Of a DNA stretch of 64,000 nt, positions 1-64,000 are shown piece by piece. The stretch's first letter is position 1; every line of letters begins with the position of its first letter. The DNA is taken from assembly GCA_008632985.1 (NCBI GenBank), contig QPGO01000006.1, positions 555,138 through 619,137 on the forward strand, in the 5' to 3' direction. The notes beneath the pieces are model-generated. The model was not told the DNA's origin. It saw only the letters and a list, made by a program, of their open reading frames with translations, and did not search any database. The position numbers were made by a program, and so were the translations under genes. Source of the DNA: Psammoneis japonica (lineage: Eukaryota).

Positions 1-531
1 TTGCTTGCTTTGCTGCACTGCTTGTAGAACTGGGAGAGCCAAAGGCATCGATGCAAAGAAGCTAGAAGCATCCAACACCAATTGTGGTCAATCTTTGGAT
101 GATGATGATTGCAAACTTTCTCACTTTTGCAGGCATTCTTTGCATTGTCATTGTTGAGGCAAACTTGAGATGTGCTCTGTTCTGGGTGACTGCAGCTTTG
201 ACCCAATGTCAAAGTCATTGCAAAGTTCTTCAAAAACACTTTTTGCTCCTCCAAAACATTGTTTGGAACAAGAACCCAACAAAATGCCTGCATGAGGACA
301 GTCTTGTCTCTCCTGTTCTCATTTGGTGTCATTTGGGTGTGGTGCGACGGCAGCTGTTCTGGCCACATTTGTCATGCTCAACACCACCCAAGAGGGCCCT
401 TGCTTCCTCAGCCAATTGTGGCTGTGGTCAGTTTGCTGCTCTTGTTCTGCAGCGAGCAGTTGGCTGCACATGAATGTGGCAGCAATGATCCAATCTGGAT
501 GTGCTGGGAGTGTTTTTTTGTGCTGTCATGG
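1..531. repeat. Heavily degenerated repeat relic (TA- and CG-poor, TG/CA-rich); host site of the Gypsy insertion
   Basis: Very few TA or CG dinucleotides; only spurious Cys/His-rich ORFs; the same composition resumes after 3680. Confidence 0.6.
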
Positions 532-956
532 TGCAGCATGCCTCGCTGCTGGACAACACGGCGAGACCGTGTACAAGCCTCTTGTGCATGGCAACGCAGC
601 ATTGTTAACACGCACCTGGGAAGCACGACCACAGGAGGGCATGGCTCTAGGTCCCAGGCAATTCCAGAAGGATGCTGAGAGAGCATCCGTGTGAAGCACA
701 CCAGCCCGTCGTCTGGCCCACGATGGTGGCGTGATTCCACATGATGACATCACTCGTGCATGGCGCGTGATGGCTTGATTCGCACGATCCACAACGTGAA
801 CGCACGATCAATTTAATGCGATCCAAATGCGAACGAATGGGGATTTGGCAAGATTCCCTGTTCGCACGATCCCATTTTCTCCACTCTAAACTGGCTCACA
901 ATTTTCACAACAACAAAGTCGCAACACATCTTCTTTTTCAGCGCCTGGTGCATGCA
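532..956 (+). repeat. 5' LTR (425 bp)
   Basis: Aligns without gaps to 3256-3680; begins TG and ends CA. Confidence 0.95.
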
Positions 957-1026
957 TGGGGCACAGTGAGACATCACTCCCGCATGTTGTGCGAGGTGAC
1001 GAAATCTACAGAAATGAAACTACGAA

Positions 1027-3300
1027 ATGTTGGCAGGACCGACAAATCTTAAAACGACCATGAAGAAGCAGATTGAGCCGCCGATTCCGTTCGCACGGCC
1101 GGAGAAGAAAGAGCTGCAGCAGGGCGAGTGCCAGACGTTCAAGCTGCGTAACAACCCTGCTGATCCGGATGGTCCAACGCATGAGATGGGCATTCCGCAC
1201 CTTTCTGCGGCTACATGCGAGACACTCCCAATCTTTCTACGCAACGTGGATCGCGTGCACGAAGGACAAAACATCACGACCGGGCCAGCGAAATTTGCCC
1301 TCATGCGTGACCTGCCACAGGGCGATGCTCTGACGTCATTCAATGATGCCGCTGACAAGCAGGCATCCCAAACCAACGCTGCGCACGCAGCATGCGTCGC
1401 GAAGCTAAAGGAAAGCATCTTCCCACATGGGGCGGTGCCATTGCAGAAGCGTTGTCTGAGGCGCTTCATGCGCAAGCCCGCAGAGGTTTCTGCTCGTGAC
1501 TGCGTCGCGAGGGCTGTTGAAATTAATGGCTGCATCTCTCAGTTTCCACCCGTGACAGAGGATGGAGAAACACCGGCACCATCACCTGATGACGAACATC
1601 CTGATTTTAACAAACCCTTTGAGACACATGCCGATGCCTCTAAATGTCAATTGGGAGCAGTTGCATCCCAGGACAACAAACCTGTCGCCTTTTACAGCAG
1701 AAAGCTCAACAGTGCGCAATTAAATTGTGCAACAACGGAGAGAGAATTGCTCGCCATTGTGGAGATGTTGAAAGAATTTCGAACGATTCTCCTTGGTCAT
1801 CGTGTGATCACACATGCTGATCATAAAAATCTTACGTACAAAGTGCTCAACACCGAGCGCGTTATGCGCTGGCGGTTGGCATGCGAAGAATGCGGTCCCG
1901 AATTGCGCCATGTTGAGGGCACCCACAACCCAGTCGCTGACGCTCTTGGTCGCCTTCGACCAGCACCCAGCTTGCCTTCTGAGGCTAATCCGGATGTAAA
2001 AGACACTCCATCGAGTCATCCTTTGCATGAAGCTTTTAATGCAGATGCGCAAGATGAGCCATCTCTGCCTGTTGGCTTCAAGCGCATTCAAAAAGCACAA
2101 CAAAAGGACAAGCGCCTGCTCTCAAGAGCCAAGGACTCGTCCGACTGCTCCATTCGCGCGTGTCGTGGGGGAGGGTCATCACGACAGTTAATCTGTCATA
2201 AGGACAAAATCGTCGCACCACAGTCATTGCAGGTTCCGCTAACTGAATGGTGCCACAAGACACTGTGTCATCCAGGTGAGACACGCACGGAAATGTCCAT
2301 TGCCCAGCACTTCTGTTGGCCTGGCATGAGGTCTACGGTGCATTCTACGTGCATCAAGTGCGATCGATGCCAGAAGACAAAACGCCGAACGCAGCATCAT
2401 GGGAAGCCACCAGAAAAGGTCGCAGAGACAATTCCATGGGAGACTCTGTGCATGGATGTGATGGGGCCACATAAAATTCAAAGATGCGGAAAGGACACCT
2501 TGCAATTGTGGGCAGTCACAATGATTGACCCAGCAACCGGGTGGTTCGAGATCAAAGAAGTGTCTGCGAAACGTGCAGACATCGCAGCAAACGTCGTAGA
2601 ACAAACGTGGCCATGCAGACATCCGTGGCCAACCCAGGTGGTTTATGACCGTGGGACAGAATTTATGGCAGAATTTAGCCAGATGATTAAAAATGACTGT
2701 GGGATTTTGAAGAAACCCACAAGTGAACGGAATCCACAGGCGAACGCCACAGTGGAACATGTGTGCCAGACACTTGGTGACATGGTGCGTTCCTTTTCAG
2801 CACAGGACATGGAACTGGACAAAGATGACCCATGGAGTGGCATCCTCTCCGCAGCAGCCTTCGCTGTTAGAGCTGCGGTGCATGCGACCACGCGTGCAAG
2901 TCCCATGCAATTGGTCCTCGGACGCGATGCGGTTTTGTCCATTGCCCATCGTGCCAAGTGGAAGTGCACAGAAACCAGAAAGCAGAAGCTTGTCCACTTG
3001 AACAACAAGCGTGAAAATCAGAAACGCAAGGAGCATCAACATGCCGCAGGGCAATTGGCACTTGTCAAACAGGAACAATCCTCTAAATGCAGTTCTGACA
3101 GCTGTGCAGGACCCGCCAGAGTTGTCCGTGTGTGTGACAACGGCACGTTGCGTGTCCAGAATGGAGCGCTGACAGACGCACACAATCTACGGCAGATTGC
3201 ACCCTGTCACCAGCAAGACATTCTGTCACTTGGCGGCCCTGATCATGGGGGAGTGTGCAGCATGCCTCGCCACTGGACAACACGGCGAGACCGTGCATGA
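1027..3300 (+). pseudogene. Gypsy gag fragment fused in frame to RNase H and integrase; protease and RT missing; hypermutated
   Basis: RNase H motifs HADAS..QLGAV, AFYSRKL, ERELLAIV, DHKNL, VADAL; integrase H-H-C-C zinc finger and catalytic core (PWETLCMD, YDRGTEF, NPQANATVE). Confidence 0.9.
3247..3255 (+). other. Polypurine tract of the Gypsy element
   Basis: gggggagtg immediately 5' of the 3' LTR. Confidence 0.75.
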
Positions 3301-3680
3301 GCCTCTTGCACGTGGCAACGTGGCATTGTCAACACGCACCTGGGAAGCACGACCACAGGAGGGCGTGGCTCTAGGTCTTAGGCAATTCCAGAAGGATGCT
3401 GAGAGAGCATCCGTGTGAAGCACACTAGCCCGTCGTCTGGCCCACGATGGTGGCGTGATTCCACACGATGACATCACTCGTGCATGGCGCGTGATGGCTT
3501 GATTCGCACGATCCATAATGCGAACGCACGATCGATTTAATGCGATCCAAATGCGAACGAATAGGGATTTGGCAAGATTCCCTATTCGTACGATCCCATT
3601 TTCTCTACTCTAAACTAGCTCATAATTTTCACAACGACAAAGTCGTAACACATCTTCTTTTTCAGCGCCTAGCACATACA
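3256..3680 (+). repeat. 3' LTR (425 bp)
   Basis: Direct repeat of 532-956 with about 32 transition mismatches. Confidence 0.95.
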
Positions 3681-5330
3681 CAGGGCAATGGTGCTGTGTG
3701 CAGCACGCTGGAGGTAGATCAAAGCCCTGACATTGTGCACCAAGGCAGGCATTTTTTCTTGTCAAGCTTTCTGAAAGCTGTGTGTGAGTTCACAATGGCA
3801 CCCCCAACCCAAGTGAAAACAACGTCATTGCAAACAACATGTGTGCAACTGCAAAGTGTGCACAGCAGCACACACACCCCCTTGCTTCTCAACCATCTGC
3901 TCCTGTGAGTCTGCAAGCACTGCTCTCTTCATCTTTGCACAGTGCACACCCAAGAAAAGAAAGTTTGCAAGTTGACAGCTGGGCCTCACTCAACATGGGC
4001 AATGAGCCCCACCAAACTCATCAAAAACCTGTTGCAACCCTTGCTTTTGCTGAGCATGGCTTGCCAAGAGCACTGGACATGCAATCTGGTGATGCAATTG
4101 CTTGCTGGCACAAGTTTTTCACCACAAAAAAAAATGCACAAGGGACAGTTGCCCTGGGTTGGCAAGAAGTGACAAAGCCCAAAGTGGTTGCCAAGGCAAA
4201 TTTCGCTTTAAAAAAAGGTGACAGCTGCTGCTCCACATTGTTTTGGCAGCTTTGCTGTGGCTCTGGTTTGTTTGGCATGGGGGTTCTTGTGAGCAGAGTG
4301 GTTGTTTCTTTTGCATTTTCTGATTTGGCAGTGCACTTGGTGACCATCAGTTGGGCTGGTTGTTGTGTTGACAAAAAATGTGCTGGCCAGCTGTGCCATG
4401 ACCCAGGCTGTCATTTTGCACATTGCTTGCTGCTCCTGCTCATGGAAAGCAGCTCAGCAACACAGAAAAGTCATCCCTGAGACAGAGCTTTTGTTGTCAA
4501 CTTGAACTCAGGCATGCTCATGTCGACTGAGCAGGTGCTGCGCTTCTTGGAAACAGCTCATCACAAAGGCTTGTCTCTTTGAGTGATGGGCACAACAGAC
4601 TGCCACAACACTTGGCTTGTTCTCACCTTTTCCAGAGCCTTTTTGCCATCTGGGGACCATGAGATTGGCTGTTGGTAACCTCTCACTTGCCAAAGTGGAG
4701 CAAAGCAGAGAGCTTGTTTTGTTCTCAGCCATGTGAGCATGATGGCGACAAAGCTCTGAGCAAACAGAGCTTGGCACATGGCATCAGCGCACATTTCAGC
4801 GCAGTCCAAAAACACGGGGCAAGCTCAGGTCAGAGGGATGGCGCCCAACCCTGCTTTCTCCTTTTCTTCATGAGCGAGCACCTCTCTCCCCGCAAGAGCC
4901 AATGTGCCCAGCTGGGAGCATCTTCATCATCTCTTTGGCTCAAAGCCTCAAACCATTTGTGCCTGCATCGGATTTATGCACATTGTGGGAAGACAATGAG
5001 GAGCATTCTGGAGAGCTGCCTCCTGAGTTTTTCCAAGTTTGGGTGGAGCTGTGGTGACGAGGAGCTTTGGTTTTTGGGCGTCAATCAAAACAATGGCACC
5101 GTGCCTCACAGATGTTTGCAGATGATGTGAACACAAGAAGAAGCACAAGAAGTGCAATCCACACCTTGCAGTGAAGAGAAAGATGGCTTGCCACCACCAG
5201 CAGATCAGCTCTCTTCTCTCTCTCTCTCTACCAGCAGCAGAGTAGAGAGCAACTGCCAGTGGCACCTGGTGGCTCGAACCGCATGCAAACAAAAAAAAGT
5301 GTCACTGTTGCCTCATTCTGTAGGGTTCTT
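3681..5330. repeat. Unidentified degenerate repeat relic
   Basis: Near absence of TA and CG; abrupt return to normal composition at about 5330. Confidence 0.6.
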
Positions 5331-5589
5331 TCGTTAAATGAAGGTCATCATTACATCAAAATTACTTAAGGAGCTGTGACAACGAAGAATACTTCGTTTT
5401 CCTATTGACATTTCATCGTCGTTGCAGTTGCGAATCGGTGTCAAAACAAGGTGTCACGCCTTTGATGGCAGGTTTGAGGAAGGAGCAGAAATGCGAAGAT
5501 CTGATGAAGATCATCCTACAGTACCAATGTACCCATCAATCGTCTCACAAACACAATTGCAACGCAACATAATCTGACACTTTCAAAAA

Positions 5590-6102
5590 ATGAATCAACT
5601 TCTTCTGTTTCCGTCGTTTCTTCTTCTTGTCGTTTCCGCGCAAGCTGCCTTCATCACTCGGCACGCGATTGTCCCGTTCCACAAGAGCGCCACCACAAGA
5701 CGTCACGTTGCATCGGTGGACTGGATCCAAGAATCTGGCGTAACAGATCAACAGGTTGAAGCCACCCCTGCTCCTTGGGTGAAAAAATCAAGCATGTATC
5801 AAGCAGTCGAGTGCGCCGAGGATGAATGCGACCTGAACGAAGTGACGTATCATTTATCTTCCCTCATGCAACTCGACGACGAATGTCTCTTTTATGATGC
5901 ATTCGAGAGCGAACCGACCGCGGAATGCTCAAATACACAAGATAGGCATTTAGTGCAACGAATTCTGGAACTCAAGAGTGAGCTTCACTCACTTCAAAAC
6001 GATTTGAAGGGAAACAAGTCTGTCAATTCAATCAAGAAGGGATACAACGAAGAGTTGCAGAATCATTGGTACAATGATTATCTGAACTTTTACCACATGT
6101 AA
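5590..6102 (+). CDS. Hypothetical 170-aa protein, probably plastid-targeted or secreted
   Basis: Hydrophobic signal peptide followed by an AQA-AF (ASAFAP-like) motif; clean ORF with normal composition. Confidence 0.7.
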   Translation: MNQLLLFPSFLLLVVSAQAAFITRHAIVPFHKSATTRRHVASVDWIQESGVTDQQVEATPAPWVKKSSMYQAVECAEDECDLNEVTYHLSSLMQLDDECLFYDAFESEPTAECSNTQDRHLVQRILELKSELHSLQNDLKGNKSVNSIKKGYNEELQNHWYNDYLNFYHM

Positions 6103-13777: not shown

Positions 13778-14599
13778 GGTTGATCCTTTTGTTTTGTATG
13801 ACTCGCTTTTATTGTGGATTATGTGAGGTGTGAGCGTTGAGCTGTCGAGGTGCACGAGCGTTGGAAAGAGAGATGCCTTCGCATTCAAAGATCTTGTATT
13901 AAAACTCTACGTACTCGAATAAAATTTGAAATTTTGAAATTGGCCGGAGAAAATTTGTATGATAGTAGTCTGTCTTTTCAACAAGAGAAGATGCGTTTTC
14001 GTTCCTACCCATTTCGTCCAACAATCTTGTCTGCCTCAAAAATCTCTGAAGCTGCGGGAAAGTCAGGTTATGAGCCAAAACTAGCGCTCTGATGCTGTCG
14101 TGAAACAAGACTGTGTCGTGCGCTGGGTACACCATCCACGACCCCATGTTGGCGGAAACAGTCTGCGTGCGGTTCACGTGAAAGACGCGATTTTTTCAAG
14201 AGAACAAGACGATTTCGGCCCTCTAGTTCAAGTTTAAGCCTAGGACCAGATTTAATTCTTGACAGGGCACTGCCACCACAATTGAGAGCCATTGAGTAGC
14301 CAGTTTGCATGATGGCAGTGACACAGAAATCTGATGGAAAGAAAACGCAAAAATGAGTGCGGTGCGGTGCAGCATTTTTGTCCGCGTTTGGAATCCCTGT
14401 CGCAGGCTCCAGCAGCTTACAACAGATGTGTCATGCTACAGCATCTAAATGCACATCATGACTGATGAAAAGAAACAGTTTGCCATCCACACTGCAAACA
14501 GAGCCAACACAGATTGCAGCAGTGTGCTGCTGCGATTCAATCCCTGCGAAATTGCGACCCCGACTGAACCTTGTCCGGCTTCGGCAATGGAACGTCTTT

Positions 14600-15654
14600 C
14601 GGATTCGGCTTCAGATTTCCATGCAAATCTTCTGTGCAAAAAGACCTTTGCCATGCTCAAATGACAATTGTGTCACAACAGCGCAGGCACGGAAACATTG
14701 GCTGTGCAGGCGGATGTCGTGACGAAAGCATTGCGAAAGACACCCAAACAGCTTGAGACGATCATTTGCCGTCTCTTGTTTGTTGCGCACAGCCCCTCTG
14801 CCTTGGCGACAACTTTTGGCTCCATGTGGCGAATCCCACTCGTGCTCTTTACATGCTCCGGGTCCTCCGCTCCGCAGCCATCATCGGCTTCGACCCTCTC
14901 GTTCTCTCCCAAACAGTGCTTGACAGAGTGACGGAAGATTTCGAGATCGGGCCAATCTCCACAAGGAAACAGCCCGTTGATCCACACAATGTTGCCGGTC
15001 AAAATGCACACACAAACTTCATGCCGGAGGGCAGCCTTTTTGAACTTGAAAGAACAAAATGCCTTTGGGTTTTTCCCTTGGCTGGTCGCTTGACAATCGG
15101 TGCAATCGACTGTCACCAAGCAGTCGAGGCCCTTGTCTCTAATGAGATGATTCAACCACACAATCTGTGAAACCCGCAGAGGAAAAGGTCAGACTGAGCA
15201 TCATTCATGTGACACAATCAGGCTGAAAACTCACCACTTCGAACTCCAAATGCGAAACTCGGTCAATGAAGAACCAACTCCACTTGCGAAACGTCTGTTT
15301 GTCAACTCCGCCGCATTTACAAGCAAGGTCTTCTTCGGTTTTGTATGTTTTCACCAAAAGCAACGCCCAGAGCAGATGAACTGGCTTTGCATGTTTCTCA
15401 TCTTTATCTGGCTCTGATTCTGGGTCGGGAACGCCAATCCTCAGCCCAATCCAGATGTCGACACAGACAGCGGGCTCAACAGCAAAGTGAGATGTCCACC
15501 GTCGGTTGAACACCACTTCGCTCCCAGTCCACGGGTGGCGGTTCATGATTTCACTGCCAAGTTCAATGAATGTGTCGTGGTCAGGACCCGGCTTCTTCTT
15601 TGTGGGGGGTCCTGCCGTGGCATCGCCCTGTGGGCGTCGTCGAGTCAACGACAT
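14600..15654 (-). mobile_element. Degenerate DDE_Tnp_4-type (PIF/Harbinger/ISL2EU-like) transposase with one intron
   Basis: HLLWALLLVKTY, VDKQTFRKW, VTVDCTD, RHEV, IVWINGLFPCG, VEADDG; GTGAGT...CAG intron at 15234-15165; frameshift near 14790. Confidence 0.85.
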
Positions 15655-15970
15655 CGTGGAGTGTCGTTTTCTCCGCAAAACTGGGCCCGCCAAGATGGAT
15701 GCAACATCAATGATTCTTGTGCAGTCTCGAATGTGGTTTTTTTTTGTGAGCCGTTAAAAGTCATGCATTGATGCAGTGCGGTTGTGCGACGACACAGGCG
15801 AACGCTTTCGAACTGCTTCGCACAGTGCCGTGATGTACGACGCTCAACAGCTGTGATTTGAATTAGAGTTCTTAATCCATTGAGGTTGTGTGATAAAATA
15901 CAATGCATTGGCTTGCACACACATGAAATGTAATTTTTGCATCTGTGGATGTGCAATTTTTCAGAATCTG

Positions 15971-16510
15971 GAATTTTGACCGGACTTTTTGATTTTGACC
16001 AAAAAGAGAAAGTCCGGTCAAAATTCAAAATTTTCGGTCAAAATGAGCCGAAAAAAAAGAGGCGTTTTCGGCTCACTTCAGTGGCCTGCTGTCTGCAACC
16101 AAAGCCCGTTTGACAGCAGGCCGCTGCTTGTTCAAGGAGTGCTGCATGACTGCTGTTCAGAATCATCCTTCTTCATGTCATCTGCGGATTAAATCTAAAG
16201 ACACACAAGGTTGCACAGACATGAAAAAACTGACCTGAAAATGGTTTTCAGCTCACTTTAGCCTCATTTGCATTTTGTGTGATTGCACCAGACGGCAGCA
16301 CTGAGGTGCTTTCTGATTGCTTGTTTTTGCAACTCTTTGACAGTGTGTCATTGTGTCATCCAACGGCCTTTCGCATGAAGACAGGAAGGATTGAAGTGAC
16401 CGGAAAATGAAAAAGACCCATTTGAAATTTTGGGCCGAATTCGATTTTTCCGGTCGGATTGACCGGACATTTGTTGCTTGACTGGAATTCTCTCAACTGA
16501 CCGGAAATTT
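15971..16510. repeat. Cluster of transposon terminal and subterminal motifs
   Basis: Perfect 18-bp inverted repeat at 15971-15988/16009-16026; related ends ttttcggctcacttca (16065), ttttcagctcacttta (16245) and inverted tgaagtgaccggaaaa (16392); repeated TGACCGGA. Confidence 0.65.
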
Positions 16511-16773
16511 GGCGTTGATGTCCAATGATCACATTCAGTTTTAAAGCCATCATTGTCAACGTCACCATAAAAGCTTGCATGTGATTTTATCGTGTGTCTC
16601 TGCGTCACCTGCACAATGAAAACGTGGCATGGTGCACGCAGGCAGCCCAAACGAAGGCTCTCGATGGCTTTCGAAGAACGAAGCCGAGGCTCCACGCTCA
16701 CTCAGGAGCCAAGACGCAGACGCATCCACCCGCACTTCTGAGCTTGATCATCGTTGTTTGCTTGCTCCTGTCA

Positions 16774-18043
16774 ATGGGACCGCGTTGGGGAACAAAGCAA
16801 CGTCACGAGTGCACGAAGCACTTTAACTCATTCCATGCCAGCAAAGGCAAAGAGGGATGGGACCCGAACAACACCGAGGAGGCGTGTGTCAAGTCCAAGG
16901 TCGCGATGTCGGAAATCATCCGTCCGTTTCTGCATCGAAACCTTGGTGGTCACAAAGATCACAAATCGTTTGACAAGGCTCTCGGTGGCTACAAAAGAAC
17001 CTCTGGTGAGCATTTTGTTGAATTGGCCATTGATGGAACCCGTCGAAGTGCGTGAATTGTCACTTCACCCTGTTGGTTGTTGTTCACGCTCACATTCGCC
17101 GTGACTCATGATGATCTTTTTTTTCCTTGACAGAAGCATGCCCAGCAGACAAGGAGAAAACAGGCGCACGGGCAACTCAAGAAACAGCAGGACAAGGGGT
17201 TGCACGGCTGCCGCAAGGAGGAGACGAAAACGACGACTGCGACAGTGCCGACGACAGCGACCATGAGTTCGAGGAGCAAGAAGACAAATCTGAGGAGGAG
17301 GCGGACGACGAAGGCAATGGCAACAAGCAACAAGAACCCATGAGCACTGGCAACATGAAGAGCCCCAGTGCTGCACCAAGCAAGAAGTCCAAGACGAAGA
17401 GGACTCCCAAGAGCTCCTCGAAAAAGAAGTCGGGCGCAGAAGACTCTCGTCTTGCAAGAGAAATGCAGGAGAAGCTGAACATCTCCAGCCACACGCGCTA
17501 CGTCCGAGACGACATTTTGCCATGCTCCCCCCCATGTCTGGACAGAGCCGGACTCGGGGATCAACTGCGTCACGATCGAAATCGAGCTCCTTGGCACGAT
17601 GGTGGCGCAGGACTGCAAGCCGAGCATCGTGCGCGATGGCACAGAGGTGACTGTGGAGTGCAAGTTCCCAAATGGCGGGGACCTGATGGACCCAGCACAC
17701 CTTTTGTTGACTCACAAGGATCACATTGATTTTTCAGATCAGCACCCGAAGTGTTCAGCCAAGCAGGGGGGCAATGAGGGCCTTGAAAGAGTTGAGCTTT
17801 GACAAGGAAGAAGACAGGAAGCTCCACATTGAGCTTCCTTTCCCTTGCAATTCGAGTGGATTCTATGATCCACTCAAGGATGAGGATAACCAGCATCCAG
17901 CGGTCAACCTGTGTCCGATTCATCCGCGGGAGAGTGTCCCTGAAGGTGCGCCGAAAGCATCCATGAAGAAACCAGAGCTGACCCTGGAGAGCTTGGAAAA
18001 ACCCAGGCATGCGCAAGAGGTCGTGTCGGCTAGTTTCTTCTAG
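16774..18043 (+). pseudogene. Degenerate gene, probable accessory gene of a DNA transposon
   Basis: Lies inside the TA-depleted domain next to terminal motifs; likely intron about 17048-17132; acidic/Lys-rich linker; frameshifts. Confidence 0.45.
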
Positions 18044-18628
18044 GCAGCAGCACACAATGTAGTTGTAAATCTAGATTGCATTGTTTGGGGCACTTTTGTC
18101 TAGCTCTAATTTTTCTGTCGGATGTTTTTCAAATCTAGCTCTTGCTTGTGCAAGGTGCTTGCTTGCGAGCAGCATGTGCTGGGCCGACTGGTGGGGTCCA
18201 GCACTCCCAAATGAAATCAGAACAAGAATGTCAGCCTGGCGAGACATCTGGACAAACTCCTTTCACATCGTAATTGACCTGCCGTTCACGGCAGTGGTCT
18301 TCTTCCCGTGTGGATCCGTAGCTGACCTGGATGCGCAGACGACTGATCTGCGCCGAATCCCGTTTCGCGTTTGCAGAATAGGCATCCAAACTTTACGCGT
18401 CAGAACATGACTTTCCCGCAGCTTCTCTGTAGAATTTGGTATGAAATCTACGTGTCGTGTCACTAACAACGTCACAACTTGGTGACATCACCTGAACGCA
18501 CTCAGCTTTCTCGCAACAAGGCGGGAACGCTGTGTACTGTATTGTGTATGTATCATCAGGAGCAACAAAAAGGTGTTGTCAACGCCACTAACAAACAGCC
18601 GAAAAGAGCAACTCTTCATTGAAACAAC

Positions 18629-26925: not shown

Positions 26926-28029
26926 TTATTGGCAGTTTCCTCTGATTGTCAAATGCACGTATGTAGTTGTCTCATTTCGTGACGGCGACAGCGCTGGTAA
27001 AAATAACTCTTCGTCATTGTCGTTTCGTTCTTTTTCGCTTTCGGAGCGTGGCGCTGGCTGTGCCGAGTACATGTACATGCCCAACACAACGCTTGCAATG
27101 GCCCAAACCATTGGTAACGTCACGTTGGTACCAAACAGGACATAACTTAGAAACGGTAATGCTACCACCACCAGTGCTGCTGCAATCGACTTGCGCACCG
27201 AATCAAAAACCTTTAGGAATCGACTCGTCACAATGCCAGCCATCGACATGCATACGGCCATGCCGAGAATGATGGGTTGGCGTAGCACTTGCAAGTCAAA
27301 GTGCGAATCATCATCATCATCATCACCTTCGCCTTGTTGTTGCTTCATACTCGTGAGGGAACCGAGAAGGGTGAGCAAGAAAATGCCGTCCAAATAGAGG
27401 CAGATATTTTGTAGATTGATTGGTATGGACGGTTTGTCCTTGAGGAGTTTCTCATTGTACACACCCGCCACTGTACTGGCAAGAATTTGGAATAGGAGAA
27501 TGATATAGTTGATATAAGTCGGATGACTGTGAACATCTTGGCCGTTTTGCTCGTCTAGACTGTCGACCGTCTTAAGCACACATCCCAGGGTGATGATTCC
27601 AAGTGCCAGCCAGTGCCAGAAATTCAAGCGCCGTTGAAACAAAATCTGATGAATCACGGCTGTCAAGACCAATTTCATTTCACTCAGCAGGTAATATGTG
27701 GCTGGATCAAAGGACCGGAGATTGATGTAGGTCAACACGTCCGTCAGAGCATACAGTCCAGCGGGGATCATGTACCAAAGCAGCATGATGGCATGCGCTC
27801 GAGCGCTTACCACGAACTGACGGAATCCTCCATCCTGGAGACCAAACAGACCAATCGACAAGACCAGCTTGAGGACTTCCTGTACCCAGACGAGGGTTGC
27901 GGCATTGAATTCGAGTCCACGTTCTTTGGCGGCTTGGTTCAAGAGCCCATAGACGATCCATAAAACCATAAACAACAAAAAGACCGAGCGCTCCGCCCAA
28001 GTGGCCTCGGTGAAGGAAGTAGAGCCCAT
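26926..28029 (-). CDS. SLC35A-type nucleotide-sugar transporter
   Basis: EVLKL, IPAGLYA, DPATYYLLSEMKLVLTA, AGVYNEKLLK, NLQNICLY; about 10 TM segments. Confidence 0.9.
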   Translation of the reverse strand: MGSTSFTEATWAERSVFLLFMVLWIVYGLLNQAAKERGLEFNAATLVWVQEVLKLVLSIGLFGLQDGGFRQFVVSARAHAIMLLWYMIPAGLYALTDVLTYINLRSFDPATYYLLSEMKLVLTAVIHQILFQRRLNFWHWLALGIITLGCVLKTVDSLDEQNGQDVHSHPTYINYIILLFQILASTVAGVYNEKLLKDKPSIPINLQNICLYLDGIFLLTLLGSLTSMKQQQGEGDDDDDDSHFDLQVLRQPIILGMAVCMSMAGIVTSRFLKVFDSVRKSIAAALVVVALPFLSYVLFGTNVTLPMVWAIASVVLGMYMYSAQPAPRSESEKERNDNDEELFLPALSPSRNETTTYVHLTIRGNCQ

Positions 28030-28199
28030 GGCCTCATGGACGCCTATATCACCTTTGGAGGGCGCGGTGTTGTTAATGGGAGGACCCTTGTAGGTGTTAC
28101 TTGCTGCCGCAATAACAAAGGCAATGAATGACCGCGTCCTCTCGAACCTTACAGATGAAGTCTTGTGCCGCCGATCCAGCACCCACCGACGCTCGCTCG

Positions 28200-29430
28200 C
28201 TCGATGCCACATGAAAAAAGTCGGTCAGAGCTCCCCTGCGGAGCTCGCTTGAACACTGGGAAATCTGCTGTCTCTCCAACACAGTGCTGCCAATGAAGTG
28301 AATGATGTTCCCCAAGACCACCATTTCCCCATTGACCCAACTCCAAATTCCCCTCCAGACCAGCAAACCCAGCATGCAACAAGAAGCAGTGCAAAGAGCA
28401 GCGTGCCATCACACAGGAGCATGTGCTGCAGCAGAGAAATGCCTCCCCCACAGCACGTGCGCCAGTCTCCTCCCAAAGCATCACTCTCAATCACTTTTTC
28501 AGCTTGCTTGGAGTGAAACTGACAGTGAGTGTGAAGCTGGGTTGCAACAAACATCTCTGCTCTCCTGCCTCATTTGCCCAGAGGAGCTGCTGCTGTGTGG
28601 CTGGTGTTTTTTTGCGCAGCCTGCTTCCCAACAAGTGGGGGGGCACACCGCCCGCTAATCTCGAAGACCTGCCCAAAGCTCTGTTTGGGCATGAAACAAG
28701 ACAGGGAGCAAAAACAGTCACAAAAGCACTTTGAAAAGCAGCTCCCTCCAAGGTGTGCTGCTGGTGCTTTGTTGCTTTGGGGGTGCTGCAAAGGGGTGGT
28801 GCGCAGAGGGTTGCTGCTGACCACATGTCTCTGTCAACTGTCAACGGGGCAACAAAAACAAAAACAAAAGGACATCTTTTGGCACTTGTGGTGCAGGGTG
28901 TTTTCACTTGTGCAGATGAACAACTTGATGTTGCAACATTTGGCACGCTCACCTTTGCCACACAAAAAGGCAAGGTGCCCGAGGCAAAGTCACAGGCCTT
29001 GGCCTGTCAGGCCATCCAAACCTCTGTCCTGCACACACACTTGTCTGCCATGTCTGTCATGACAAATGCTGTGGTGTGATTCTCAGAGCTCAGCAGAGGG
29101 CAAGATGCAGCAACGCACAGAGCCACTCGATGGCTTGACCACGTGCGCAGGAGCAGGAGAGCCACTTGGGCCTTCTCTCTGGCCACTCTGAACCCCTGAG
29201 AGCTGCCTCAGATGGGAGTCAACTCAATGTCATCTAATTTGAAGGCAGGTTCCTAGCTCCAAGCTGTTCTCTGGAGCTTTGGGTGTGATCTTCTTCACAC
29301 AAAGCACCATCATTGCAGTGATGATGCGCACTCAACAGCGCCACCTTGCGGTGACTCGCATGACTCAATTCATTCACGCGAGCTCATCGCTTCTGCCTTC
29401 TGCGTTTCATCAGCGGTGCCGGCAAAGGAT
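28200..29430. repeat. TA-depleted degenerate repeat relic
   Basis: Very few TA dinucleotides over about 1.2 kb; CG depleted centrally and retained at the edges. Confidence 0.55.
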
Positions 29431-29457
29431 CCATGACGATGCACCGACGACTTAACA

Positions 29458-32824: not shown

Positions 32825-34012
32825 TTAATTCTCTTCCTTTTTCTTCAAAGCCCTCAAAGCCTCCACTCCCGTTTTCAACTTGACACCGTCTAGGAGCGGC
32901 ATGTCTTTGAGCACAACGTCCGAATGGTTGTGGACTAAATCCACAACGTCCTCCATGGTGCGTGCACCAAAGGACAGCAACGTATCTGCCACTTCTTTTG
33001 GCAGCCTCTGTCGATTAAGCCATCGTTGCATGTCAGCCTCGTCCTTTTCGGTAGCGCAGGGACGTAGGGGATCATTTTCAGAATCATTTGCGGCTTTGGG
33101 TTCTTCGGCAATTGAAGCATTATCTTCTTGGGAGTCTTGAGCAAAGGAAACATTAACTTCCTGGGGCAGAAAAGCCACCGTGCTTGGGGTGCCGGGCGAA
33201 GCCGCGAACTCTCGCGTCTCCGGAGTAAACTTGTGCTGTGATGACGGTGTGCATTCACTGCAGTCTTCCAAAGAGGAAACTGATGCCCTCGAAGACATGA
33301 CAGATGAATGCACAGAGATGACTTCATCTTGAGTGCTGTTGCGCTGCTGTTTATGAACTTGATTGTCTCGGCCTGTCGTGTTGTTGCCAGCTGCGGACAA
33401 TCGAGCTGCAACAGCAGGAGTTTCCTCCCGAGAGACAGAAGTTTTCTTACGAGCAGCATCTGGCACCCCAGCTGCGGGAGGAGCAGTCTTCCTCTTTTTG
33501 TTGGTGCCGTTTTGCTTCTTGGAGTGCTGATTCTTCTCCTCTTTGGCAGAAGGAGACACGCGAGCCGCTTGTTTCTTGCCGCCTTTGCCAGCAGACGCTT
33601 TGCCATCATTTCCTGAACGACTGACAATGTGGCCAACCGTGTTGCCATCTTCAACGCACTTTTTCCAAATGTCTTCATAGCGATCAAACTTGCCCGCACC
33701 GTTGGGGTCAAAAAAGAAATACGACGTGTGTTGTCCGCGGCGCGGTCGGCTTTTCCAACCCTTGGGCACCAGACAGGAATGAAAAACCCGCTTGCCATTG
33801 TCGCGATGAAGAAGCTTGTCTTCTTCATCCTTCGCAGTCCGTTTCATGGCTCCCAGTTGATTCAATCCTCTTGCTTCTACACAATCATGCGTTTCATGCA
33901 CACCATTGTTGTCCGTGACGTGGCACAACCTTTCCTCTTGAGGAATGCTCCGGTCAATGCCGTTGCTCGAACGGGTCACACGACGTGACGACGAATTCGT
34001 CGGTGTGCTCAT
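32825..34012 (-). CDS. Protein with an MBD-like N-terminal module and a SAM-like C-terminal module; TA-poor
   Basis: VPKGWKSRPRRGQHTSYFFFDPNGAGKFDRYEDI resembles MBD; MQRWLNRQRLPKEVADTLLSFGARTMEDV...KLKTGVEAL resembles SAM. Confidence 0.5.
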   Translation of the reverse strand: MSTPTNSSSRRVTRSSNGIDRSIPQEERLCHVTDNNGVHETHDCVEARGLNQLGAMKRTAKDEEDKLLHRDNGKRVFHSCLVPKGWKSRPRRGQHTSYFFFDPNGAGKFDRYEDIWKKCVEDGNTVGHIVSRSGNDGKASAGKGGKKQAARVSPSAKEEKNQHSKKQNGTNKKRKTAPPAAGVPDAARKKTSVSREETPAVAARLSAAGNNTTGRDNQVHKQQRNSTQDEVISVHSSVMSSRASVSSLEDCSECTPSSQHKFTPETREFAASPGTPSTVAFLPQEVNVSFAQDSQEDNASIAEEPKAANDSENDPLRPCATEKDEADMQRWLNRQRLPKEVADTLLSFGARTMEDVVDLVHNHSDVVLKDMPLLDGVKLKTGVEALRALKKKEEN

Positions 34013-34247
34013 GATGACGGCAAGAACCGGCTGCGGTGTGGAAATGCTGGAAACGAGAGAGAAAGAGAGAGAATTGTGAGCTGACCCTTTGATGAAATGC
34101 CGAGTGCACAAGGTCTCTCGTCCCGTGAAACGCATTGCTCTCACCGTTGTGACTGGTGAGACGTTGCAGCGACCCAATTGTCTGCGATGTTGGCTGTTCT
34201 AACGTTTGCGTTAGACCCCTGCATGCACAAAGTATGCCTTTATTGTG

Positions 34248-40831: not shown

Positions 40832-41560
40832 TTGCCTGAGGAGGAGTCTGCGAGAACACGAATCATCTTTCTGCTTTCTGCTCTCACCACTGCCAATCCA
40901 AAGAAATCCCATGGCATTGCACTCCTCAAACACCTTGGTCGGCACCTGCTAAAGACATGCAACAAGGGCTGCTGTGTTCAGATGCCACCTGACTGCACAA
41001 AGAGTTTTGAGTGCTGTGTGGATGCTGATTTCTCTGTGGCAATTGTGACAAAGCACCCGCAGCTCAGGGGATCCCAAGCGACACGGCAAAGTTTCACAGC
41101 GGCTTTGCATTCTCAAGCATGGAAGAGCCCCACCATCCACTGGTCATCCAACTTATAGACTCAGTTTGCTCTCAGCAGCAGTGAGAGTGAATGCTTGGCC
41201 ATGCCAGCTCTGCTGCCAGGCAGCTCATGTTCTTCTTGAGGCACCCGCGCATCTGTGTTTGGACAAGGTCAACAAAACATTTTGCCCAGTGACAGCCACA
41301 CCAATGTCACTCTGCAAGCTGTTTGAGGGCAGCTTGGCAGCACTCAAAATCACCAAGGTTCTTAAGATGAGGCCCAGAATGCATCACATCAACAGCGCAT
41401 CTGCCGCCACCACTTCCCTGCTCAAAAATCACTGCCCATGGATGCCTCCTGACTGAGGCTGTCGGGGCTGAACTTCAACAGGCTGACTTCTTGACCAAGA
41501 TGCTCAACATGTCAACATTTGTGTGCCATCATCTGTCTCTTCAAGGATGGCAATTGTTTG
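40832..41560 (+). mobile_element. Ty1/Copia RT C-terminus and RNase H relic
   Basis: KHLGRHL, FECCVDADFS, FALSSSESEC, CKLFE, KMRPRMHHIN, QQADFLTK. Confidence 0.8.
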
Positions 41561-42474
41561 AGTGTGACATTGTGGATCATGCACTCATGCAGCACCAGCC
41601 TGGTGCCTCAAGCTGCGAGAGACCAATGATGGATGACTGCCACAACAACCGCCATCAACAAATGAACCAGTCACAGATCAAACAACAACAGATTGCTCTC
41701 ATTGATCCTGAAGGTTCAAATCAAAAATGAAGCATGTCTTCTTCTTGCTCTTCTCTCGTGCAAATGAGAACTTCTTGTTTTGGGCAAGTCTTTCACTCAT
41801 GTTTGTCTGTGTGGGCTCCGGCACACATGCCAGCCAGTCACTTCTTGTTTTTCTTCTCATTTGTTGTTGGTTGTCAAGCAGCCCAGTTTTAAGTCTCACA
41901 ATTTAAAAATTGGCAAATTCAAACCCTGCGTGATTGTCAATCTTTGCTGTTTTTTGGTCTCTGTGGTGCAAAATGCCGTTGACCCCCGCGCACTTTGCAG
42001 CAGCTCACAATCATTCATTCATTGTTGTCATCTTGTGCTGATCAGTTCATTCATGGAGAGGGGCTCACCAATGTGTTGATGCCACCCACTTGCACCACTT
42101 GACTGGAAGCAATTCTCTGTTGTCATGCAGCACTGAGCATCCAGGTCATGCTTCTGCTTCATTTTTTTTACTTTGGTTGGAGTTCTCTCTCTCTCCTCTC
42201 TCCTTCTCTCTCTCCAATGGGCACTGTTGGTGAAGTTCTCTCTCACTCTTGTCATTTTCATTGGTTCCATGTGGTGCTCCTTGTCTCTCGGCAGTGCCTG
42301 CACAACAGCAGCCATCATGTGAATTTTCTTGTGGCTGCAAGAAGAGTTGCGGTGTGTGTCCACACATTTGCACCCTGACAAAAATGAGTGCAATTTGCTT
42401 CTGGACTTGTGCTCTGGAAAACTCAGCTGGCAGGTGGCTTTCCCCTGCCCTGCATGAGGACCAACAGCTTGATT

Positions 42475-43167
42475 TCATGATGCTTCGCGGCCCATTGTTG
42501 CACTCACTGTGGACATCATGCAATGGTGTTGTGCAAAAGCTGCTTGCAATTTGTCCGGGAGAGATGGATCATCCTCAAGCCACTCAAAATCGCAAGGAGG
42601 TAGACCGGGATCATGCTTGGACTTCTTGTGCATCAGTCCCCAATGTTTGGTGCACCACAAATGCTTGGCCATGTGCTTGAGTGGATCACAACAACGAAGC
42701 TCAGCCGGGGCCTTGGAAAACTTGGACAAGGTGACAACAGGACAACCAACATCCAAATGACAACAGGAGCAGGCAAAGACCAACTCACCCAGAGCAGAAT
42801 GGCAAGAGAAGCCTTGGGACTCAGAGAGAGCATCATGCTCAGGAGCACCCTCTTCAGGGCCTTCAGCAGTGTGCAGATCAGGAATGCAATCAACCGGAAT
42901 GGGTGCAGCCTTGAAATCAGACTCAGATTCATTCGCAGCGAGAGCATCCCAACCATGGGTCTTGAAGACACGATCAAGGCAGCTGGCAACATTGACAGCA
43001 ATTGAATCGTCATTTTGGATGACATCAATGCCATTGAATTCAGCAACCAAGCCCAAATGCTTGAACGGAGGAGTGTCCTCATTCTCCATCTGGAGAGCCT
43101 TGCCAATGTGGTCGCAGATCTCTTTTGCAATCTTTTTGGAGGGACAAGCAAGAGCAAAAGAAGTCAC
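42475..43167 (-). mobile_element. Ty1/Copia (CoDi-like) reverse transcriptase relic
   Basis: FALACP, PFKHLG, FNGIDVIQ, GFSCHSALGELVFAC, DVGCPVVTLSKF, AKHL..TKHWG. Confidence 0.85.
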
Positions 43168-43980
43168 GCCACATCATCAGCCCTTGAGATTGTTGTTGTG
43201 TTCCGGTGTTGTGATTGGTTGTCCTTGTTGTTCAACTCAATTCAACTCAATTGTCGTGTGTGTTTGCCAAGGCAAAAACAACTCTGCTTTGCTGGGGCGC
43301 AGTGCCAACTGCTGCACTGAAAAAGGGACACCAGGTGGTGAGATGAGACAGCAGCGCCATTTCTCTTTTCTGTTTGCACTGCTGCCCAACTTTCAGACAT
43401 CCAACATGACCTCAGTTTCAACCCTTTTTGTTTGTCACATGAGATTCATTTGTTCCCTGCTGGCTGACAGCATTGCAAAACAACTCTTTTGGTTTTTGCA
43501 CAGGCTGAACACTTGCTTCACTCATTGAAAAAATTTGCACTTTTCTGGGACAAGAAGGGTTTGTTTTCATTGCATCCTGTGTTTTCATTCTTGCAGCTCA
43601 TCTGAGTTCATTTCCTCCAATTCAGGCAGCATGCACAGCTTGCCACAAGCTGTGTGAGCCTGTCATGTCTTTGCACACCATCATCTTCAAGAAGTTTGCT
43701 GTTGGGGGTGCATTGACACACAAGTCAACTTGGCAGAGCAGCTCTGTCTTTGGCTCATCTGCCACCTTGGCCTTTGACGCTGGTGCTTTCTTTGTGGCAC
43801 TGATGCAGCCCAAGAAGCCCAACGACCATTGGCTCTCAGTGCCAGCCACAAGCTTTGTTTGCTGACTGCCCTCCATGCTCCCCCTTCTTTTTGCTTGTTG
43901 CCTGTCATTTTCCACCCAAATTTGCTTCTCTTGCAATCTTAAATTTGCTCTCTCCCACCATTTCCTTGCTTGACAACAAT

Positions 43981-44040
43981 GCTCATCTCAAGCATGACTG
44001 CAGTGACCGTGCTCATCTCAAGCATGACTGCAATGACTGT
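43981..44040. repeat. 30-bp tandem duplication
   Basis: gctcatctcaagcatgactgca.tgac.gt twice. Confidence 0.85.
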
Positions 44041-44176
44041 GGCACCAATGTTTTGTCAGGAGCCCACCTGGTCAAAGTCTTTTCATGGATCTCATCACAC
44101 TGCCAGCAGTGCTTGGTTTTGTCAAACATCATGGTTGCAAAGCTTTTCTTGTCCTTCTTTGTGAGAATTCTTTCTC

Positions 44177-44566
44177 GACGCGTTCCAGCCCTAGGTGGGA
44201 CTCCGTGTGACATTGGGCCCGTAGAATTCTACGTGCGAGCTCCGTAGTACGAGAATTTAATTAATGGATATATTTATCTTCAACATCAAATAAACGGCCA
44301 AGTTTGTGGTACAATTATGCCTCTTACCACTCGACGTTTTTGCAACTTCGCCTGCCCTACGCGATTCTTAAGACATTGTAGAATCGCGCTGTAACAAAAA
44401 ATGTCAAAAGTTGTTACACGGATCACTCAATAAGTGTACCGTAAAATGACACAAAATATCAAAAAAATCACGTAGAAATCTACGTGCGCGACATACGACG
44501 AGACTCAAAAAACCATCGATGTCACAGTTCAGTAGTACGAGGTCCCACCTAGACCTGGAACGCGTC
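44177..44566. mobile_element. Putative 390-bp MITE with 30-bp imperfect TIRs and TCTC flanking duplication
   Basis: gacgcgttccagccctaggtgggactccgt (44177-44206) is inverted relative to acgaggtcccacctagacctggaacgcgtc (44537-44566); tctc on both sides. Confidence 0.6.
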
Positions 44567-47500: not shown

Positions 47501-47690
47501 CATCAATTTCATCTGGCATGGCGGTACAAAGCTGGTCAAAGAGGCAGACAAGTGGGGCACAACCCACATGACTTTTGGAAGGATCCAAGTTGATGGATTT
47601 TTGCGCTGCAAAATGGATTCAGGAGGACCAACGACATCATTGCAGTGATGGAGGCAGATCCACACATTTGCTGAAGCCCCACAGGTCTGG
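44567..47690. repeat. Unidentified degenerate repeat relic (TA- and CG-depleted)
   Basis: About 3 kb nearly devoid of TA and CG. Confidence 0.6.
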
Positions 47691-47826
47691 TGTACCTGTG
47701 GGTCGCCGGCCCTCCGTTGGTCAGCCGTGTTCTCCACGTCCCATGCCGCCGACGTGTTGAGAAGCTTCCGCAAGGGGTAACGTGGCTCCACATTAGATCG
47801 AGAGGCCATCTTTGCTAAAGTAGTGC

Positions 47827-62900: not shown

Positions 62901-64000
62901 TGAATCGTCGCTTGCTTCTCCTGGAACGGAGATGCCAGACTATGTTGTTAACTCGTTGGTTGATATGAGTGGAGGCACTGGAAAGGACTCCATCTTCATT
63001 GTGGTGAAGAGGGAAGAGGATTACGTCGCGACACCCAAGGAAATTCTTGGTGGTGGCCTGTCGATAAAGTATAAAACCATCGAGGCGCTGAATGTCGGAG
63101 CAAATGAGCAGATCACGGTTCTATCGATGGATCAAGATCAAGTCTTGCGACTTTTGTCGCCAGATGGATCAGTCGTGCCCAACTCAATCAATCCTCTGAG
63201 TATCGATCCAATCATCTCCAAGAATCTCCGTGGGCACCGTGGAATCATACAGCATGAGGTATCAAGTGACGATCCCGCCTACAACAACCTATACGTGGAG
63301 GGAGTCGCATTCAACGTGCTCGATAACGACGGCGACTTTGCATACATCGGCATCCTGCAGTCAGAAGAGTTCCATCTTATGAATGAAGATGGAGTTGGCC
63401 GCTTTGAAATCTCTGTTTATCCAACTCGAGAGCCAAATGGCACCGTGGCTGTTGATCTAGTTGCGCCAGCGGACGTGGATGGAAACCAGATGCTTCAGCT
63501 GAACGGCGCGACTACTGCTGCAATCACGCTAATATTCGACAGTACGCAGCCGCAGCAGGTCGAGGTCTCTTACAAGACTAGCAGTGCGCCGTTGGAAGTT
63601 ACAGAGCGTGACCTCATGATCAAGATATTATTGAACACGGACTCGACGACCGACGAACGGTTTATCACAACCAAGCAGTCTATCCTACCCATCCACATTA
63701 CGCTCATTCCGGGCACCAATTCTGAAATGGCAAAGTCTGTTACTATTTCCAAGTCCGTTGAAGACTTGTTTGTAGTGGAAGATTCGAGCGTCACTGGGCC
63801 ATTGACTGACTCTTATGACTTGATCTTGCGCCCGTGTCCCGGTTCCGAGACTGCCCTAAATGGCGCATTGCGCATTGGAGTCTCAGATGTTACCCAAGAG
63901 GGGCAGGTTCGGCTCAATGGTCAACTTGATGAGCTTGAAATCTCCTACAACGACTGGGTGAATGCAGATGATTGCATTGTGACTGTCACTGTCAAAGCGG
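53999..64000 (+). CDS. Giant (about 3000 aa or more, runs off the window) secreted or surface protein with RTX-like GGxGxD calcium-binding repeats; multiple introns
   Basis: Long acidic ORFs joined by GT-AG introns (about 54267-54341, 57425-57551, 59968-60048, 60113-60197, 62618-62695); YGGGGNDSF, DGGAGIDSL, RGGDGNDEL, IGGAGNDIV, NGGGGNDEF, NGDSGDDTL. Confidence 0.8.

Follow-up and report, generated by a model that had tools for sequence, protein, structure and literature searches.

Within a 64,000-nucleotide stretch of the nuclear genome of the diatom Psammoneis japonica (assembly GCA_008632985.1, contig QPGO01000006.1, positions 555,138 to 619,137; hereafter, the window), we describe a Harbinger-like DNA transposon that has lost most of its TpA dinucleotides, together with further blocks of the window showing the same loss. 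The most probable explanation, to which we assign a probability of about 0.8, is hypermutation of TpA to TpG or CpA at the DNA level after insertion of this copy, with decay of CpG in parallel. The loss is tied to its dinucleotide context, affects both strands equally, is limited to blocks, differs independently from copy to copy, and acted after duplication. As far as the literature searched reaches, TpA-specific loss that approaches saturation and affects both transposon classes is new for a diatom, and a process of this kind has been reported once before, in another lineage.

TpA is lost from exons, intron, and noncoding DNA alike

Across the central block of the element (14250 to 17900; all positions are those of the window), we observe 28 TpA where about 138 would be expected at the background observed/expected ratio of 0.60, which gives a ratio of 0.12 (P = 5e-30). 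The coding sequence (CDS) and intron of the transposase gene together retain 5 TpA against 37 expected at background (observed/expected, 0.08; Poisson P = 5e-11), and the part of the block outside the transposase CDS retains 23 against 100 (P = 1e-20). The 70-nt intron contains none against 2.5 expected, a deficit that is not significant by itself; the introns of relatives contain 2 to 15 TpA each, except that of the TpA-poor metagenome contig L002, with 0 in 88 nt. Because the intron and the noncoding DNA are depleted as strongly as the exons, the change is most readily placed in DNA. An earlier note on this sequence, made from its letters alone, had argued for DNA-level mutation, and this proposal is borne out by the depletion of intron and noncoding DNA, by the symmetry of TG and CA, and by a pair of repeats resembling long terminal repeats (LTRs) elsewhere in the window, whose copies diverged after duplication.

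In the element as a whole, TA stands at 0.12, TG at 1.45, and CA at 1.42, compared with background values of 0.60, 1.18, and 1.18. Read on one strand, the transposase gene shows a nearly equal rise of the two products (TG, 1.41; CA, 1.44), and editing of a sense transcript therefore does not fit. CpG decay, absent from the earlier note, runs alongside: the observed/expected ratio (rho) of CpG is 0.81 in the element, and counts for the block set ~110 missing TpA and ~43 missing CpG against an excess of ~120 TG plus CA. Between about one-fourth and one-third of the surplus TG and CA comes from CpG decay, and most of it from TpA loss.

Two TpA-poor zones lie on either side of an island between the two genes of the element (Table 1). 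Both element ends are near background, with 11 TpA in 14048 to 14446 and 12 TpA in 18031 to 18425.

Under the genetic code, TAA to TGA is the only change of TpA to TpG or CpA that preserves a stop codon. The transposase frame has stayed open despite heavy mutation because TpA loss removes TAA and TAG and cannot create them. The loss of these stops in TpA-poor DNA also explains a pileup of overlapping open reading frames (ORFs) at 17065 to 17733, where three of at least 200 codons, of which two are read from the minus strand and one from the plus strand, are accompanied by a fourth of 118 codons in another plus frame.

Conserved tyrosines of the transposase have become cysteine or histidine

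Read without correction, the transposase protein has 304 residues, comprising 1 Tyr, 15 Cys, and 12 His; homologues average 3.4% Tyr, and the host ORFs in the window mostly have 1 to 4%. The sole surviving Tyr codon is a TAC at 15343 to 15345, in exon 1. The minus-strand translation contains the segments KAFCSFKF, AALRHEV, EADDGCG, and DPEHVKS, in which the earlier note had suspected that Cys and His replace conserved Tyr; it had suggested an alignment to homologues with scoring of the fates of Tyr codons. A search of 1.84 billion representatives (E <= 1e-3) returned 1268 homologues, the best 59% identical, and residue states were scored on a MAFFT alignment with the best 150 of them. The suspicion holds for FCS, RHEV, and DDGC, where Tyr occupies the column in 50 to 95% of relatives and where TGT, CAT, and TGC are each a single transition away from TAY. 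It does not hold for PEHVK, which falls in a variable column.

The same scoring was applied to the second, divergent gene of the element (ORF2), whose Tyr sites shared by both of its relatives read TGT (16885 to 16887), a kept TAC (16990 to 16992), and CAT (17011 to 17013) in the window. Three of the four robust Tyr columns of the transposase are now C, H, and C, and two of the three in ORF2 are C and H. Thus, five of seven robust columns are altered, every one to Cys or His by a single transition from TAY. The last Tyr column, an Ile in the window at the extreme C terminus, was left out for uncertain alignment, and the misaligned C-terminal positions 290 to 297 were excluded from the comparison of conserved columns. 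In environmental (metagenome) relatives, the RYEV column is encoded by TAT or TAC at 52 of 53 loci, and the DDGY column at 47 of 48, the latter count being biased by a search pattern that required Y or C.

At the Tyr columns, Cys or His is almost never seen in homologues with a normal Tyr content. These states are nearly confined to Tyr-less relatives that have evidently been mutated and are not, as the earlier note would have taken to speak against it, a feature of functional homologues. Thirteen of the 150 homologues are Tyr poor (<1.1% Tyr; five without any) and rich in Cys plus His, and their 46 cells at Tyr columns hold C 15, H 13, Y 5, F 5, S 4, and other residues 4 times. Both Cys and His are found at one column in different Tyr-poor copies. 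When Y, C, and H are masked and a tree of 140 rows is built, its 11 Tyr-poor rows require 11 changes, and by this measure the Tyr-poor relatives are independent tips of the family tree.

In addition, we observe CpG-type losses at conserved codons of the window copy, namely Arg CGT to His CAT and Pro CCG to Leu CTG, at positions where 85 of 94 and 135 of 150 homologues, respectively, share the original residue. The loss of conserved Tyr, Arg, and Pro suggests that the encoded protein is inactive.

The element carries terminal inverted repeats and two divergent genes

Terminal inverted repeats (TIRs) enclose an element of 4378 nt, 14048 to 18425. The left TIR was the single hit of a transition-tolerant diagonal scan of 13900 to 14700 against 17500 to 18500 and was also recovered by alignment. 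The earlier note had taken the element for class II and hence without a reverse-transcribed stage. This assignment is strengthened by the TIRs (24 of 26 positions paired), the conserved intron, and the second divergent ORF shared with relatives, on which grounds the locus is, as judged from its sequence, a Harbinger-like DDE transposase gene of a class II element.

PIF/Harbinger elements usually generate a 3-bp target site duplication, TWA, and carry a second gene for a Myb/SANT-like DNA-binding protein. Here, the TIRs are flanked by TCT on both sides, which fits Harbinger in length and not in sequence; since the chance of such a match is 1 in 64, it is weak evidence. ORF2 is homologous to an equally placed ORF in the metagenome contigs L003 and L007, and a Pfam scan of ORF2 and its relatives matched no family and recognized no Myb/SANT domain. 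In its distal part, tblastx segments lie in frames 1 and 2 against a single continuous ORF in L003. Upstream of ORF2, a near-perfect hairpin of 33 nt (15965 to 16044; 85% complementary, 2-nt loop) is accompanied by further nested inverted repeats.

The intron of the transposase gene is retained, as the earlier note had read it. At this codon boundary, 35 of the 39 environmental relatives in which both exons are present show a gap of 47 to 104 nt, mostly GTRAGT...YAG, and from this shared placement the intron is judged genuine and an ancestral trait of the family. The remaining four (L006, L012, L017, and L026) have no intron at the conserved site and could represent intron loss or transcript-derived contigs.

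Kinship with DDE_Tnp_4, also claimed earlier, is seen in a few homologues and not in the window protein itself, which falls below the Pfam threshold and matched no Pfam family. Among 32 aligned homologues, 4 matched DDE_Tnp_4 (best E, 2.5e-11) and 2 matched DDE_Tnp_1; among 10 homologues scanned, only one (P0072) exceeds the DDE_Tnp_4 (PF13359) cutoff, with 28.7 versus 24.8 bits. For this divergent branch, support for membership in DDE_Tnp_4 thus appears weak. The window protein keeps all of the nearly invariant acidic columns of alignment A2 (D20, D23, D73, E89, and D94). A profile search of the PDB with the same alignment gave 0 hits, a search for longer homologues at E <= 1e-10 found none, and a search for near relatives returned 11 proteins.

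Table 1. Positions of the transposon, its genes and scored codons, its TpA-poor zones, and the LTR-like pair in the window
Feature	Position	Strand	Details
LTR-like repeat, 5' copy	531..963	+	433 nt, TG...CA ends; 92.1% identical to 3255-3687
LTR-like repeat, 3' copy	3255..3687	+	Preceded by a purine run; sharp ends
TCT outside left TIR	14045..14047		Possible 3-bp target site duplication with 18426-18428
Left TIR	14048..14073		26 nt; pairs with reverse complement of 18400-18425 at 24/26 positions
TpA-poor zone 1	14447..15754		5 TpA in 1308 nt; transposase gene plus ~165 nt past stop and ~100 nt before ATG
Transposase exon 2	14611..15164	-	Stop codon 14611-14613; one-base frame change near 14796-14799
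His codon CAT in PEHVK	14853..14855	-	Variable column: Tyr 25, Lys 22, His 19, Phe 17 of 134
Cys codon TGC in DDGC	14874..14876	-	Tyr in 130/145 homologues; 128/135 Tyr-normal
His codon CAT in RHEV	15021..15023	-	Tyr in 132/150 homologues; 130/137 Tyr-normal
Cys codon TGT in FCS	15054..15056	-	Tyr in 73/146 homologues (Phe 25); 73/134 Tyr-normal
Transposase intron	15165..15234	-	70 nt, GTGAGT...CACAG, phase 0, zero TpA
Transposase exon 1	15235..15654	-	ATG at 15654
Island between divergent genes	15755..15931		7 TpA in 177 nt, near background
TpA-poor zone 2	15932..18030		11 TpA in 2099 nt; ORF2 plus upstream region
ORF2, first exon	16774..17049	+	Divergent from transposase; ATG 16774; from tblastx and pairwise alignments to L003 and L007
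ORF2, distal part	17536..18043	+	Stop TAG 18041-18043; frame change between 17700 and 17801 at GGGGGG run
Right TIR	18400..18425		24/26 with left TIR
TCT outside right TIR	18426..18428

The same loss recurs in blocks across the window

TpA observed/expected is ~0.60 in the background of the window and drops to 0.00 to 0.2 in blocks totaling ~20 kb of the 64 kb (1 to 5700, 14250 to 17900, 28150 to 29450, 33450 to 34200, 40950 to 47700, and 50865 to 53550); adjacent host ORFs that were examined have ratios of 0.46 to 0.59. Compared with background, TpA-poor DNA shows a fall of only two dinucleotides, TA (0.11 versus 0.60) and CG (0.50 versus 0.99), and a rise of only TG/CA (1.65 versus 1.18). 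With AT (0.86 versus 0.97) and AA/TT (1.21 versus 1.12) essentially unchanged and only TA and CG falling, the loss is not a general drift from AT to GC. GC content is 0.50 to 0.53 in the blocks and 0.42 to 0.47 in much of the background, and rho(CpG) is 0.08 to 0.5 in several blocks. The two most extreme blocks, 40950 to 47700 and 50865 to 53550, have rho(TpA) of 0.01 to 0.09 and rho(CpG) of 0.08 to 0.47 over many kilobases, with a TpA-containing island among them at about 44200 to 44600. Recognizable element genes occur in only two of the TpA-poor blocks: Pfam scans matched 0 families on 49 ORFs of the other blocks, and none on the 23 ORFs of at least 110 codons scanned in the two most extreme ones.

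The LTR-like pair, the only long repeat in the window, allows the process to be followed in two copies of one sequence; an RNase H/integrase ORF (1018 to 3300) sits between them. All 34 differences between the copies are transitions, and 33 of them lie at TA, CG, TG, or CA sites: 14 oppose TA to TG/CA, 7 oppose CG to TG/CA, 12 make up 6 swaps between TG and CA, and 1 is of another kind. The 5' copy is the more mutated, with 5 TpA versus 15 in the 3' copy; of the 7 differing CpG sites, it has CG at 1 and the 3' copy at 6. Copies of this kind start out identical, and the changes between them therefore came about later, in DNA.

The surroundings carry the marks of a diatom genome. The window contains long, intron-poor ORFs, and the best matches of its presenilin are those of diatoms (Thalassiosira, Cyclotella, Skeletonema, Minutocellus, Ditylum, and Fragilaria among the named hits), with identities of ~40% over most of its length and ~65% in the conserved part. 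Four consecutive ORFs of ~810 to 840 codons lie on the same strand at 54994 to 63999, the last running off the window; none matched a Pfam family, and they possibly form a tandem host gene family.

Two further observations concern the margins and the remnants of the TpA-poor blocks. Block 28150 to 29450 starts within the first 25 codons of a minus-strand nucleotide-sugar transporter ORF (26926 to 28224), where TpA loss may extend to the margin of a host gene. Over all TpA-poor blocks, the contexts of surviving TpA are uneven (TTAA, 0.63 of background; TTAG/CTAA, 0.32; ATAT, 0.00). A motif derived from them was dropped, as the sites are few and include block edges.

Other versions of the element exist

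The element was compared with contigs of a public DNA run, X1, which contains 47% of the element's sampled words. We find 320 X1 contig pieces on 14000 to 18200, 110 of them at >=99% likeness, 100 at 95 to 99%, 87 at 90 to 95%, and 23 below 90%; two other runs, X2 and X3, gave one matching contig piece and none, respectively. Several versions of the element exist, be they paralogues, alleles, or strains. Compared with the window, the X1 versions show differences at 338 places, and transitions make up 302 of these. Difference types were read from 40 of the 338 rows, equal to 28 events: 9 TG/CA swaps, 10 with TG/CA in the window versus CG elsewhere, 2 in the reverse direction (window CG), 2 with CA in the window versus TA elsewhere, 1 with TA in the window versus CA elsewhere, and 4 others. 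As a sample, the swaps support independent hits on each copy and do not apportion TA versus CG ancestry.

The window copy also contains two frame breaks. A profile of 150 homologues follows the transposase in frame 0 to ~14798 (198.7 bits) and in frame 2 from ~14796 to the stop (54.0 bits). At 14798/14799, in a CCCC run, all X1 contigs that cover the place have one base more (T depth, 114.5; C depth, 159.9; total, 274.4), and at 17770, in a GGGGGG run, the X1 contig that covers it has one base less. Both breaks may be private mutations or assembly errors, and the reading of this copy as a pseudogene does not depend on them.

The signature is found beyond this element: L002, a contig of 1067 nt encoding a transposase relative with 58% identity, has a rho(TpA) of 0.08 and a His codon (CAT) at the FYS column.

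Weighing the explanations

An alternative with a minor yet appreciable chance of being right concerns the chemistry. Thymine at TpA might be oxidized or hydroxymethylated (to 5-hydroxymethyluracil [5hmU] or 5-formyluracil [5fU], by an enzyme of the TET/JBP type) and then mispair with G, changing T to C with the same outcome in sequence. In dinoflagellate DNA, 5hmU prefers TpA. The two routes look identical because TpA is palindromic, and with TG and CA equally raised, A to G and T to C are indistinguishable by sequence. Against thymine, the preprint that describes this signature in the chlorarachniophyte Bigelowiella natans (Mettrop et al., bioRxiv 10.64898/2026.01.13.699255, of which we draw on the abstract, Results, and Discussion) proposes deamination of adenine, itself without biochemical proof. 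An artifact, in which base calling for a long-read assembly misreads modified bases of silenced DNA (methylated CpG, modified TpA) as TG/CA, strikes us as quite improbable. Both frame breaks do lie in homopolymer runs and lack support from X1 contigs, and only 47% of the sampled words of the stretch occur in X1. However, 110 of the 320 X1 pieces are >=99% like the TpA-poor window (although X1 is possibly the window's own source and so not independent), only 2 of the differences read (40 of 338 rows) restore TA, the signature recurs in the independent metagenome contig L002 and in Tyr-less proteins from other public sources, and in B. natans it was measured by Illumina reads, as the preprint reports.

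Very little speaks for editing of element RNA from A to I by an ADAR-like enzyme, or for reverse transcriptase error, fixed through a reverse-transcribed copy. ADAR favors U before the edited A, as stated in the Discussion of the same preprint (10.64898/2026.01.13.699255), and retroelement remains in the window share the signature; yet this element has TIRs, a conserved and retained intron, and a DDE transposase, its intron and noncoding DNA are depleted like its exons, both strands are hit without bias, and the LTR-like copies acquired the same kinds of change once they had been duplicated. We give as little credence to a functional or selected origin, be it a subfamily that uses Cys and His or selection against TA/UA. 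A few homologues do have Cys or His at Tyr columns, and TpA is mildly underrepresented throughout the window (0.60), but those homologues are the Tyr-less ones, scattered as single tips of the tree with C and H mixed at single columns, the depletion extends into intron and noncoding DNA, and other conserved residues (Arg to His and Pro to Leu) have been lost as well. Least plausible of all is GC-biased gene conversion, or a general bias from AT to GC among repeats, combined with CpG decay: the blocks exceed much of the background in GC content, as it would predict, but the loss is confined to TpA, and ApT and ApA/TpT are not lost.

DNA-level hypermutation of TpA after insertion must itself be held against several observations, all of which weigh on its negative side. 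TpA depletion and the Tyr columns, rather than polarized substitutions, are what give the direction of change, and sequence traces alone identify no enzyme and show no continuing activity. In the element block, CpA+TpG is 1.37 to 1.47, below the threshold of 1.52 in the B. natans preprint. Within the 28 events read from 40 of the 338 rows, CpG is involved 12 times versus 3 for TpA, and a TG/CA swap may have had either CpG or TpA as its origin. Neither frame break is seen in X1 contigs, so the assembly may contain errors. Finally, the near-background ends and the 177-nt island fit poorly with a simple model in which the whole repeat is mutated.

Proposed mechanism and its implications

Under our preferred explanation of DNA-level hypermutation, a cut-and-paste transposon with TIRs and two divergent genes (14048 to 18425) would have inserted into the diatom nuclear genome, after which a context-specific process would have converted the self-complementary TpA into TpG or CpA. 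Each event would be an A:T to G:C transition at TpA on either strand, and the strand affected would decide between TpG and CpA. The central 3.6 kb has lost about 80% of its TpA, from exons, intron, and noncoding DNA alike, and would have done so in this way, turning Tyr (TAY) into Cys (TGY) or His (CAY) and erasing TAA and TAG stops, and ordinary decay of CpG to TpG or CpA would have proceeded in parallel. The chemistry that we favor is enzymatic: a deaminase of the TadA/ADAT2 type, directed to mobile DNA, would convert the adenine of TpA to hypoxanthine, and the loss may serve in genome defense.

The map of TpA-poor zones could mean that targeting follows the transcribed parts of the element. 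Coupling to transcription is nevertheless a low-probability idea, since the hypermutable region of nucleocytoplasmic large DNA virus (NCLDV) origin in B. natans is reported as transcriptionally silent (10.64898/2026.01.13.699255, within the sections named above). In a broader and rather doubtful extension, diatoms might have an active genome defense that resembles repeat-induced point mutation (RIP) with opposite polarity, with a natural enzyme attacking TpA, shared with chlorarachniophytes and old within the stramenopile-alveolate-rhizarian (SAR) group. TpA loss that stops near gene ends and spares the 177-nt gap gives a hint that such a defense is targeted by transcription units or RNA guides rather than by pairing of repeats.

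If the hypermutation described here is real, the TpA process reaches beyond a single odd lineage, it molds the repetitive DNA of a major group of marine primary producers, and the responsible enzyme should be findable by genome comparison. Researchers in base editing would also be interested in a naturally occurring enzyme that converts A:T to G:C at one particular dinucleotide of DNA. For annotation, the loss of TAA/TAG and of Tyr codons produces long false ORFs and Cys/His-rich pseudoproteins that mislead gene callers and domain searches, and dating by divergence is distorted, with transposon copies seeming too old or too young. The central control is the DNA transposon, as it excludes RNA editing and reverse transcriptase error.

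Comparison with known systems

Decay of CpG through methylation and deamination is known for transposable elements of diatoms, and the loss of CpG to TpG or CpA in the same blocks resembles it. This decay cannot remove TpA or turn Tyr codons into those for Cys or His, and it therefore represents a second, parallel process.

Relative to PIF/Harbinger elements (PF13359), the transposon shares a DDE transposase that distantly matches DDE_Tnp_4, two genes, TIRs, and identical 3-bp flanks; it differs in a transposase copy below the Pfam threshold, a second gene without recognizable Myb/SANT domain, and flanks of TCT instead of TWA. Editing by ADAR or APOBEC enzymes likewise leaves clustered transitions in mobile elements, and ADAR favors a 5' U, but these enzymes act on RNA or reverse transcription intermediates with strand bias, and the element has neither; the TIRs, the retained intron, and the equal TG and CA all depart from what RNA editing followed by reverse transcription leaves behind.

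RIP of ascomycete fungi is comparable in acting on DNA in a dinucleotide context, by transitions only, and in riddling repeated mobile DNA in blocks while sparing neighboring genes. Its polarity is the opposite. RIP turns CpA into TpA (C to T), creating TpA and stop codons, whereas in the diatom element TpA is destroyed and not gained, TAA and TAG are erased, frames stay open, and the damage is by missense.

The closest match is the process described in B. natans. Our literature search, which left most subscription journals outside its coverage, found no description of TpA loss in diatoms, and the B. natans preprint is the only match; its abstract, Results, and Discussion do not mention diatoms (10.64898/2026.01.13.699255). 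According to these sections, 231 of 302 new mutations in mutation accumulation lines fell in two integrated viral regions, every GC-biased mutation occurred at TpA and led to TpG or CpA, the genome contains 124 clusters of windows poor in TpA and rich in CpA+TpG, the TpA-poor CDS are enriched in DDE endonuclease and reverse transcriptase domains, and an ADAT2-like deaminase is proposed without biochemical proof (Mettrop et al.). Both systems share the change of TpA to TpG and CpA on both strands in blocks of foreign or mobile DNA, and the long-term trace of low rho(TpA) with high rho(CpA+TpG). With the B. natans thresholds, 13 of the 64 one-kilobase windows of our stretch qualify; those of the element do not, because their excess of CpA+TpG is smaller.

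The differences are equally instructive. The host there is a chlorarachniophyte (rhizarian), and here it is a diatom (stramenopile); the targets there are insertions of giant viruses and virophages, and here they are transposons of both classes. De novo events were measured in B. natans, and the process is known here from sequence traces. CpG decay accompanies TpA loss in the diatom, and a process of the B. natans type would be expected to leave almost exclusively A:T to G:C changes; the C-to-T changes at CpG may be a separate long-term process, unseen in a short mutation accumulation experiment. Finally, depletion in the diatom is near saturation, with rho(TpA) of 0.01 to 0.2 compared with the 0.45 that the preprint gives for the B. 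natans NCLDV region.

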